A program made the position numbers and the translations under genes. From Shigella phage vB_SdyM_006: DNA of 64,000 nt. Shown here piece after piece: positions 35,414 through 39,745 of the stretch (its first letter is position 1; each line of letters begins with the position of its first letter). The stretch lies in the sequence record MK295204. One strand, given 5' to 3'. The notes under the pieces were generated by a model that worked only from the letters and a program-made list of their open reading frames with translations, ran no database searches and had not been told where the DNA came from.

Positions 35414-35752
35414 TTATTCCTTAAGCATATACATATAAACTAAATAGGTTGTGTTTCTAGTTTTTACAATAGCTACTCTATCATCTAACATTTTAAAGCT
35501 CTTTACAGTAGATGTACTAACATAAGTTTCATCTTTAAATCGATTAGAAATATCACTGTAAATAAGTCCAGAAATACCAAATCTGGCTTCTAAATTAACT
35601 TCAAGAATATGCTCTAATTTATCAGACATTCGATGTCCGATAACAGCTAGAATAGCATCGCATGCACAAGCATTTCGAATAGAAGATAATTCAGATTCTT
35701 GGTTTTGCCCTATTTTATCTTCAATTGCGTTAATCAATTTTTCTGTTTTCAT
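35414..35752 (-). CDS. hypothetical protein
   Basis: 112 aa ORF immediately downstream of the DAHP synthase gene. Confidence 0.45.
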   Translation of the reverse strand: MKTEKLINAIEDKIGQNQESELSSIRNACACDAILAVIGHRMSDKLEHILEVNLEARFGISGLIYSDISNRFKDETYVSTSTVKSFKMLDDRVAIVKTRNTTYLVYMYMLKE

Positions 35753-36723
35753 TATAAGTCCACAATTAATTGTGCAGTGTCAAAGATATCAATACAAGGA
35801 TCTGTAATTGATACACCCCATAAAAGATTATCGGAAATCTTTTGATTACCTTCTATTAAATTACTTTCAATCATAAGCCCAAAAGTATTTTTAGCTTTAA
35901 TTGCTTCTTTAGCTACATTAATTTGGTTTTTAAAATTACCTTCACAATTAGCGTGTGAGCAGTCAACCATAACTGGAATCTCTAAAGACTCAATATATTC
36001 TTTAGAATAATTAGTTTTATATTCTTTACCGATTTTACCACCACGTAAAATAATATGCGTATTTAGATTTCCACTTGCATAGATTTTACTAATCACGCCA
36101 TCCATATTAATACCTAAATACGAATGTGGAAAAGCTGAACTCTTCATAGCATCTAATGCTACTTGAATATCACCTGATGTTGAATTTTTAAATCCAACGG
36201 CCATAGGCAGCCCAGAAGCTATTTCACGATGAGTCTGTGATTCTGTTGTTCTAGCGCCGATAGCAGTCCAACTAAAAATACCAGATAGATACTTAATAGT
36301 AAATGGGTCTAAGACCTCTGTCGCCAAAGGAAGCCCAAGATTCAATAGTTCTATGCATAAGTGACGAGCAATTCTTAACCCTTCATCCATGTTAAACGAA
36401 CCATTTAATTCAGGGTCATTAACAAGTCCTTTCCAACCTACGGTTGTACGTGGCTTTTCAAAATAGACCCGCATTACTAAAAGACATTTATCACCAATAT
36501 GGTTTTGTAATCTTTTTAAATACTGCCCGTAAATGACCGCTTGTGCTGGGTCATGAATAGAACAAGGCCCAACAACGATCAGTTTTTTAGAACTCACGCC
36601 AGAAATAATATCTTTAACTTCTTGGCGATGATTTTCCACTTGTTGCTTTAATTCATCAGAAATTGGCAACTCATCATGTAGCTCTTGTGGTGTGCTAATA
36701 GTTTTAACGTGCATGGATATCAT
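35752..36723 (-). CDS. 3-deoxy-D-arabino-heptulosonate 7-phosphate (DAHP) synthase, class I (AroG-like)
   Basis: 323 aa; collinear with E. coli AroG: VVGPCSIHD, MRVYFEKPRTTVGWKGL, GARTTESQTHRE-ASGL, HIILRGG, DCSHAN, ESNLIEGNQ, SITDPCI; all four AroG metal ligands (Cys, His, Glu, Asp) conserved. Confidence 0.88.
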   Translation of the reverse strand: MISMHVKTISTPQELHDELPISDELKQQVENHRQEVKDIISGVSSKKLIVVGPCSIHDPAQAVIYGQYLKRLQNHIGDKCLLVMRVYFEKPRTTVGWKGLVNDPELNGSFNMDEGLRIARHLCIELLNLGLPLATEVLDPFTIKYLSGIFSWTAIGARTTESQTHREIASGLPMAVGFKNSTSGDIQVALDAMKSSAFPHSYLGINMDGVISKIYASGNLNTHIILRGGKIGKEYKTNYSKEYIESLEIPVMVDCSHANCEGNFKNQINVAKEAIKAKNTFGLMIESNLIEGNQKISDNLLWGVSITDPCIDIFDTAQLIVDL

Positions 36724-38358: not shown

Positions 38359-38533
38359 AATAATCCTTATTCTTTAATCAAAGAATTCATAAATTCGATA
38401 AAAGCTTCACGTGCATCATTGAGTTGCTCAGCCGTTTTATTATATTCGTCGTAATCAGTCACATGTCTAAGAGATGTTCCTAATTGTTCGAATTGGCTAA
38501 ACAACCCATATAAAATATGAAACTCTAGAGGAG

Positions 38534-39247
38534 TCATTTTAATTCCTGCTCAATTTTGTCAATGATTGCATAAATTTCATGTTTAACTGGAGTAACGGTT
38601 TTACCTGATTTTTTAAACAACTTAGAAGCTTCTTCAGGATTTGTTTTATACAATTTTTTAGCTTCTTCTTTGATGATAGTGGCTTCTTCAACTGCAGACA
38701 TAAGTTCTTTAAGCTTTTTACGAAGATCTTCGATATCATTATTACATGGAACAAAATCTTTTTCTAAAATCATAAAACGATGCCATTGAGTAACAGAAAT
38801 TGGGTCAGTTAATTTAAAATCTGATATTTCTGTTTTACCAGGAATAATGATATCATTATCAGTCTCAGCAACTTTGACTACAACATGAGTCACTTTGTCA
38901 TCTTCAATAGTTGGAATAAACCGAGGTCTTAAATCAGGATTTGCCTTTTTAGTAGAATGCAAAGAAGCAAATCGTTTAAACCGAGTATCTGTAATACTAT
39001 GGACAAACGAAGCATCATTAAGCATATATACGTTCTGGTCATCTTCAAGAATGTGCACATCACCTGGGAGATGTAACATATATCCTGACGATGAAGCAGG
39101 GCTAGAATTGAAACCTGGTAAATGATTAACTTCAGAATAATCGATCTTAAAAAGACCATCAGATCTTCGTGTTGCATTGACAGTAATAGGGAACACAATA
39201 CCTGCCATGCTTGCAAAACCATTATGGCTTGTTAATTTAATTTTCAT
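38534..39247 (-). CDS. hypothetical protein (shares N-terminal motif with next gene)
   Basis: 237 aa; N-terminal F-x-S-x2-GI-x-FPI-x-V-x-AT motif shared with 39250..39471. Confidence 0.5.
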   Translation of the reverse strand: MKIKLTSHNGFASMAGIVFPITVNATRRSDGLFKIDYSEVNHLPGFNSSPASSSGYMLHLPGDVHILEDDQNVYMLNDASFVHSITDTRFKRFASLHSTKKANPDLRPRFIPTIEDDKVTHVVVKVAETDNDIIIPGKTEISDFKLTDPISVTQWHRFMILEKDFVPCNNDIEDLRKKLKELMSAVEEATIIKEEAKKLYKTNPEEASKLFKKSGKTVTPVKHEIYAIIDKIEQELK

Positions 39248-39249
39248 AA

Positions 39250-39471
39250 TTATTCCTCTATAACTGAAAACTCACGTGGTGTAAAATAATAAGAATCTGT
39301 TGATGCGGATTTGTCAAATCCTTTTAATTTAATGAACTGAGATTGGGCAACGTTGATACAAGCGCTGTTATCACAATCAGGTGTAGCATAGACTTCAATA
39401 GGAAACTGAATACCTTCTAAAGAAGTAAACCTGCCATCACATAATATTTTTACTTTTATCATAATTTTCAC
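39250..39471 (-). CDS. hypothetical protein (paralogous N-terminal motif)
   Basis: 73 aa. Confidence 0.4.
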   Translation of the reverse strand: MKIMIKVKILCDGRFTSLEGIQFPIEVYATPDCDNSACINVAQSQFIKLKGFDKSASTDSYYFTPREFSVIEE

Positions 39472-39745
39472 ACTTAGGTTCGTTTAAGTCAACACGGTAA
39501 TAACATACCATAGTTTTCATTTGTTGTAAATATCTTTTTACATCTTCAAGCCAAATTCTTAAATCTTGAGAGTCTTTATAAGATAAAGCAACTTGTGGGC
39601 CGTCTTTATTAATGACTTTCCATTTTACATCTAATGGCTGAACAGGAGCTGGCCATTGTGGATGGATTTTAGGCACTTCCTGTGGTGCAGGAACAACGCT
39701 ATTGCACCCGGTTAATAACATAATAGGAATTATCAGATGTTTCAT
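39437..39745 (-). CDS. o-spanin (outer-membrane lipoprotein)
   Basis: Signal peptide ending in lipobox LLTGC, proline-rich N-terminal region; overlaps i-spanin gene by 4 nt. Confidence 0.7.
   Translation of the reverse strand: MKHLIIPIMLLTGCNSVVPAPQEVPKIHPQWPAPVQPLDVKWKVINKDGPQVALSYKDSQDLRIWLEDVKRYLQQMKTMVCYYRVDLNEPKCENYDKSKNIM

Follow-up and report, generated by a model that had tools for sequence, protein, structure and literature searches.

A predicted SH3-like small β-barrel module common to two adjacent genes of a T4-like Proteus/Shigella phage, standalone in one and fused in the other

What do two neighbouring proteins share when they begin alike and then seem to part: a remnant of duplication, a signal that sends them to the same place, or a domain? 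The question is raised by two adjacent genes, here called A and B, in a stretch of 64,000 nucleotides from Shigella phage vB_SdyM_006 (sequence record MK295204; the whole stretch is referred to as the window). An earlier note, made from the letters alone, had described a motif of about 25 residues (F-x-S-x2-G-I-x-F-P-I-x-V-x-A-T) at the start of both proteins with divergence thereafter, and had offered a truncated duplicate or a shared targeting or interaction module as explanations. We find that the two proteins have an entire domain of ∼70 residues in common, predicted to be a five-stranded SH3-like β-barrel, which makes up the whole of B and the N-terminal part of A. The two open reading frames (ORFs) have the coordinates that had been assigned to them, and with their parts they are as follows.

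39250..39471, minus strand: gene B, a standalone predicted SH3-like β-barrel protein of ∼70 residues; the ORF has 73 residues from a GTG at 39471.
38534..39247, minus strand: gene A, a fusion of an N-terminal module and a clade-specific C-terminal part; the ORF has 237 residues, all of them covered by a match to phrog_20482 (E = 3.7e-122).
39035..39247, minus strand: codons 1–71 of A, the N-terminal module copy homologous to B (from BLASTP, the family profile and the strand pattern).
38534..39034, minus strand: codons 72–237 of A and the stop codon, comprising a β-rich middle (∼72–165) and a long α-helical hairpin (∼170–236).

BLASTP aligns residues 5–73 of B with residues 1–69 of A, with 22 identities in 71 positions (31%) and an expectation value (E) of 1e-8, so that all of B is aligned and not only the segment of ∼25 residues to which the likeness had been confined. 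The Smith–Waterman score of the pair is 79; 5000 shuffles gave a mean of 26 (standard deviation 4.4) and a maximum of 58, none of them reaching the observed score (Gumbel P ∼ 9e-8), and the similarity at the N-terminus is thus far above that of shuffled controls. Because the second half alone (A31–72 against B34–70) is also significant, with a score of 34 that was matched by six of the 5000 shuffles, the common unit is the ∼70 residues of B rather than 25. A and B are homologous, and what they share is a genuine domain that folds and evolves independently. The window is from a Bragavirus, a T4-like Proteus/Shigella phage; between 37.3 and 40.7 kb it is 99.4% identical to Proteus phage phiP4-3. 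The note had also suggested looking for the motif elsewhere in the genome: in the six-frame translation of the window it occurs in A and B only, and profile hidden Markov model (HMM) scans and hhalign of 212 small ORFs found no third copy of the module in the window or in the whole 167,849-bp phiP4-3 genome.

A word-indexed homologue search with B alone returned B itself only, and an exhaustive profile search was needed to place it. A profile made from the eight available module copies was searched against 1.84 billion representatives with a cut-off of E ≤ 1e-3, which gave 216 cluster representatives, mostly of 65–75 residues; B, with 70 residues from its ATG, lies within this range. About ten representatives have two tandem copies of the module, one protein of 531 residues has several, and in several others the module stands ahead of helical or coiled-coil tails. 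Such fusions make up ∼10–15% of the representatives; A is one of them and hence is not a standalone protein of ∼65–75 residues. Searches of isolated phages by tblastn with single family members found very few records, the family being too divergent.

In an alignment of 85 members Pro21 is invariant and Phe20, Val24, Gly48, Phe60 and Glu66 are conserved in at least 90% of the sequences; all of these residues are present in B. The consensus of this alignment is MKVKLLNDGGY....V.FPV.V.A.........V...EL...G...........F...E.EV. Its conserved core, F-P-[VI]-x-[VI]-x-A, and the C-terminal F...E-x-E-V strand are found here, the core reading F-P-I-T-V-N-A in A, but the LLNDGG[YF] turn of the family is degenerate, being LCDGRF in B and TSHNGF in the module of A. 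The HMM of the 85 members recognizes B with E ∼ 1e-20 and residues 1–66 of A with E ∼ 1e-11. All 85 members match phrog_13367, as does B (E = 1.9e-6 over positions 1–74 of the full 74-position profile), and many also match phrog_15322, 7345, 9595 and 5009; all five are annotated as ‘unknown function’. Judged by its sequence, B is a full standalone member, of the same length and with the same core, of this large, catalogued and uncharacterised phage and prophage family (PHROG 13367 and its sister PHROGs), whereas in A the domain is fused at the N-terminus of a longer protein, filed apart as phrog_20482. None of the 85 members matches any Pfam model, and B likewise has no Pfam hit, be it to SH3, KOW or Tudor. 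Neither A nor the family profile found a meaningful match among PDB sequences, and literature searches on the PHROG numbers and on Bragavirus returned nothing about these genes. Protein B is 100% identical to gp212 of vB_SdyM_006, which the genome paper placed among the proteins without similarity to anything known (PMC7925395); it can now be assigned to a family that has over 200 sequence clusters and a fold predicted with confidence.

The AlphaFold2 model of B, calculated on the 85-sequence alignment, is a five-stranded SH3-like barrel with a predicted local distance difference test score (pLDDT) of 94.2 and a predicted template modelling score of 0.80, and structure prediction, which the note had listed among its checks, thus yields a confident barrel for the shared module. 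The motif forms strands 1 and 2 of this barrel, and the strand pattern of the model of the A module agrees with that of B. On the strength of these models we regard the module as a probable five-stranded SH3-like small β-barrel. The predicted barrel superposes on known SH3-like small barrels (SH3, KOW, Tudor, the retroviral integrase C-terminal domain and PsaE) over 45–56 residues at 2.2–3.1 Å. According to Foldseek, the predicted viral structures that resemble it include ‘uncharacterized proteins’ of ∼70 residues from many T4-like phages, with template modelling (TM) scores of 0.77–0.89; the matches include the phages Klebsiella ZCKP1, Citrobacter Merlin, RB49, Sf20, Makalu_003 and Cronobacter CS01. 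One further viral protein, of 73 residues (BFVD entry A0A7U0G9C3), superposes on B with a TM score of 0.86 and 26% identity; its accession is a near neighbour of A0A7U0GA42, the B orthologue, and the protein either comes from another phage or is a copy too divergent for the HMMs.

With A as the query, tblastn finds full-length homologues in Bragavirus only (44% identity in Pm5461 and PM2), and the Gualtarvirus phages of Morganella and Providencia match residues 74–233 only (E = 7e-18). The profile phrog_4482 matches residues 72–229 of A (E = 8.9e-7). The Gualtarvirus match is a separate protein of 159–165 residues (for example, gp167 of Morganella phage MP1; phrog_4482) encoded at the same site between o-spanin and pseT; it is homologous to residues 72–237 of A with 32–36% identity and has the same helical C-terminus. 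It starts exactly at the junction in A (M-EYYVNDAS compared with ...N-VYMLNDAS). Unlike A, it has no N-terminal barrel: in the same Gualtarvirus genomes the barrel is the product of a separate gene of 73–81 residues just beyond pseT (E ∼ 2e-13 to the family HMM). Only 11 clusters were found with a profile built on the C-terminal part of A; all are from the same phage group, all are without a name, and they have lengths of either 159–164 or 232–241 residues. Gene A is a barrel module fused to a clade-specific part, a β region followed by a long helical hairpin, and phrog_20482 is a clade-specific fusion of the module with a PHROG 4482-like part.

The divergent standalone module genes just beyond pseT (L011:5091-5336, L004:4035-4256 and L006:4682-4927; the L numbers denote loci of other phages and metagenomic contigs) were seen in Gualtarvirus and on a single metagenomic contig of the Pm5461 type. 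The window and phiP4-3 lack a module gene at this place, and the neighbourhood of pseT looks like a hot spot for the module family. In T4 the slot between o-spanin (pseT.2) and the polynucleotide kinase gene holds pseT.1, the product of which (75 residues) has no detectable sequence similarity to A, B or a 56-residue ORF next to pseT in the window (listed below). PseT.1 was rejected as a homologue: at an E cut-off of 100 BLASTP aligned it with neither B nor the 56-residue ORF, and its alignment with A had an E of only 33.

The module also varies between close relatives. B is restricted to the phiP4-3 subclade and is absent from Pm5461 and PM2. The metagenomic relative L010 matches the window at 97–100% identity, ∼99% taken together, from rnlA to pseT, except in codons 1–72 of A, where the DNA identity falls to 57–73%; the drop begins and ends sharply, at the start codon and the domain junction. 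Between the two, the A module has a synonymous divergence (dS) of 0.73 and a nonsynonymous divergence (dN) of 0.26, compared with dS ≤ 0.10 and dN ≤ 0.01 for the flanking genes. As the synonymous sites have diverged too, the module of A was replaced by a divergent allele and did not undergo local acceleration. Further afield, 17 loci of other phages were retrieved in a related-locus search made with the LLNDGG subset of the alignment; four of the 17 hold two to six adjacent copies of the module. Three of these (L029, L024 and L030) have two to four copies, and the fourth, L032:2947-4339 (IMG/VR UViG_3300046534_001085), has six modules spread over five ORFs in a row, with a helical tail on the last. 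The L032 array, directly after a gene for a DNA polymerase-like protein of 739 residues, is the most extreme tandem amplification of the family that we observed. Single copies occur elsewhere in the lambdoid nin region and in clusters of small ORFs between packaging genes (terminase and portal). Adjacent paralogues such as A and B are a habit of this family, and the module behaves as a mobile evolutionary cassette, as seen in the presence or absence of B, the allele swap in A, the arrays and the fusions. For a hyperplastic region of a T4-like genome, the arrangement of A and B is modular evolution of an ordinary kind.

The setting of the pair is that of a T4-like gene order, rnlA–alc–i-spanin–o-spanin–B–A–56-residue ORF–pseT, with every gene of the region on the minus strand. 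The pair had been placed upstream of the spanins; on this strand A and B lie 3′ of the spanin genes, between o-spanin and pseT. The other features of the region are the following.

41768-40650, minus strand: rnlA.
40592-40092, minus strand: alc.
40101-39742, minus strand: i-spanin.
39437..39745, minus strand: o-spanin (pseT.2 homologue), directly 5′ of B; matches phrog_812 ‘Rz-like spanin’ (E = 3.4e-38) and is annotated likewise in phiP4-3.
39253..39259, minus strand: Shine–Dalgarno-like AGAGGAA of gene A, read from the sequence, 5 nt before its ATG.
38367..38537, minus strand: ORF of 56 residues, the last gene before pseT; matches phrog_26851 (E = 8.5e-32) and is annotated in phiP4-3.
38358-37360, minus strand: pseT.

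The likelier start of B is the ATG at 39462, which gives the 70 residues annotated in phiP4-3 and as gp212 of vB_SdyM_006. Depending on the start, the 5′ end of B overlaps the 3′ end of the o-spanin gene by 26–35 nt (39437-39471) in a different reading frame; in Pm5461 and PM2, which lack B, gene A itself overlaps o-spanin by 11 nt. The stop codon of B and the start codon of A are 2 nt apart, and the AGAGGAA of A is formed by the last codons of B (ATA-GAG-GAA), an arrangement that is the same in L010. With the candidate ribosome-binding site of A inside the last codons of B, the two genes are probably co-transcribed and co-translated. No sigma-70-like promoter or terminator specific to the pair was found near the genes, the counts not being above shuffled expectation, and no late promoter (TATAAATA) was found near A and B. 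By gene order, by analogy with T4 and by the lack of a nearby late-promoter box, A and B are probably expressed early or in the middle of infection.

Taken together, these data favour a reading in which A and B carry a common barrel module, B alone and A as a fusion, that evolves as a cassette and would have a protein-binding role; we give it a probability of roughly 0.7. Among the functions that the note had offered, an interaction module would be the best guess. The family is acidic, with a mean net charge of −6.8, a median isoelectric point (pI) of 4.4 and 95% of its members net negative, and for this reason the barrel would bind protein rather than nucleic acid. It may act in the cytoplasm of the infected cell, where its target would be a strain-variable protein of host or phage. 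B would then be a free binder, and in A a binder of this kind would be attached to a helical partner domain that probably oligomerises; the paralogous copies may have different specificities or may pair with one another. A target that varies between hosts would fit the patchy presence of B, the swapped allele and the arrays. Several points weigh against this reading. The family contains no member with an assigned function, and the literature was as silent as PADLOC, NCBIfam and Pfam, which gave nothing above threshold for A, B or the 56-residue ORF. The model of A has moderate confidence only (pLDDT 70.6, from nine sequences). Protein binding, heteromerisation of A with B and a role in an arms race are deduced from charge, fold class and evolutionary pattern, and the early or middle timing from gene order, T4 analogy and the missing late-promoter box.

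A bolder version of the same idea, which we think improbable as a whole, takes the family as an undescribed superfamily of acidic SH3-like proteins that diversifies for variable host targets through arrays, cassette exchange and fusion, with the barrel of A and B as a matched pair. B and the A barrel would then heterodimerise or share a target, and A would add an oligomerising helical effector arm. We hold it equally doubtful that the members of the family are inhibitors that diversify against host defence or against targets of host takeover, with A and B as two specificities side by side. The proteins are small and acidic and occupy an accessory position in the early region, their presence differs between close relatives, an allele has been replaced with sharp borders (the A module relative to L010), and other phages have tandem arrays of diverged paralogues, all of which would suit such a role. 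However, no match to a known defence or anti-defence family was found (PADLOC covers defence systems rather than anti-defence proteins), and such an evolutionary pattern is compatible with any accessory gene from the hyperplastic regions of T4-like genomes.

A nucleic-acid-binding barrel of the KOW, OapB or integrase C-terminal domain type, perhaps working in RNA repair with the flanking RnlA and PseT, is less likely again. The strong acidity of the family described above argues against it, and elsewhere the family has no link to RNA-repair genes.

There is very little to be said for B as a truncated or decaying tandem duplicate of A, the 5′ fragment of a local duplication, and we rejected B as a recent truncated copy. 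A and B are adjacent, in the same orientation and alike in their N-terminal regions, as such an origin would have it, but B is complete, covering the family domain from end to end and stopping at its natural C-terminus, E-F-x-V-I-E-E. In pairwise scores B is nearer to a protein of Pseudomonas phage 15b (106) and to a Pantoea prophage-type protein (85) than to the A module (79), and the two module copies are only ∼50% identical in DNA, one short block excepted. Nor does the absence of B from Pm5461 and PM2 suit a recent duplicate. Compared with L010, B has a dN of 0.024 and a dS of 0.124 (dN/dS ∼ 0.2), which points to purifying selection on B, and its predicted fold is confident. The least probable explanation of all is that the common N-terminus is a targeting signal (secretion, membrane or lipoprotein) tied to the spanin and lysis genes, which the pair does adjoin and one of which B overlaps: neither protein has a hydrophobic or transmembrane segment (maximum Kyte–Doolittle values over 19 residues of 1.06 for A and 0.58 for B versus 2.22 for the i-spanin control), the motif is part of the predicted barrel, the contexts of the family are unrelated (the lambdoid nin region, replication modules, between terminase and portal genes), the Gualtarvirus module lies beyond pseT and not beside the spanins, and T4 has the unrelated pseT.1 in this slot.

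The family assignment, the fold and the picture of fusion and fission add to the record of vB_SdyM_006, and they allow a clean annotation: ‘small SH3-like barrel domain protein’ for B and ‘barrel plus helical-hairpin fusion’ for its larger neighbour A, the parts of which are separate genes in the sister genus. The pair reveals no new mechanism; it is a natural experiment on a common, unstudied phage domain, which is found in these phages fused or split, with or without an extra copy, and with swapped alleles.

Some smaller features of the neighbourhood remain to be described. The 56-residue ORF, which is conserved, overlaps the stop codon of A by 4 nt and is separated from pseT by 9 nt; like pseT.1 in T4, it holds the slot nearest pseT. 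A gene for a SegD-like homing endonuclease is inserted beside pseT in PM2, PSTRCR_127 and MP1 (L003:727-1443; L005:4092-4808; L006:3939-4655); neither the window nor phiP4-3 has it. At 35752-36723 on the minus strand the window has an auxiliary metabolic gene for a DAHP synthase (phospho-2-dehydro-3-deoxyheptonate aldolase) of 323 residues; the annotations of phiP4-3, Pm5461 and the Gualtarvirus phages include it too, and T4 has the cd.x ORFs at this place.
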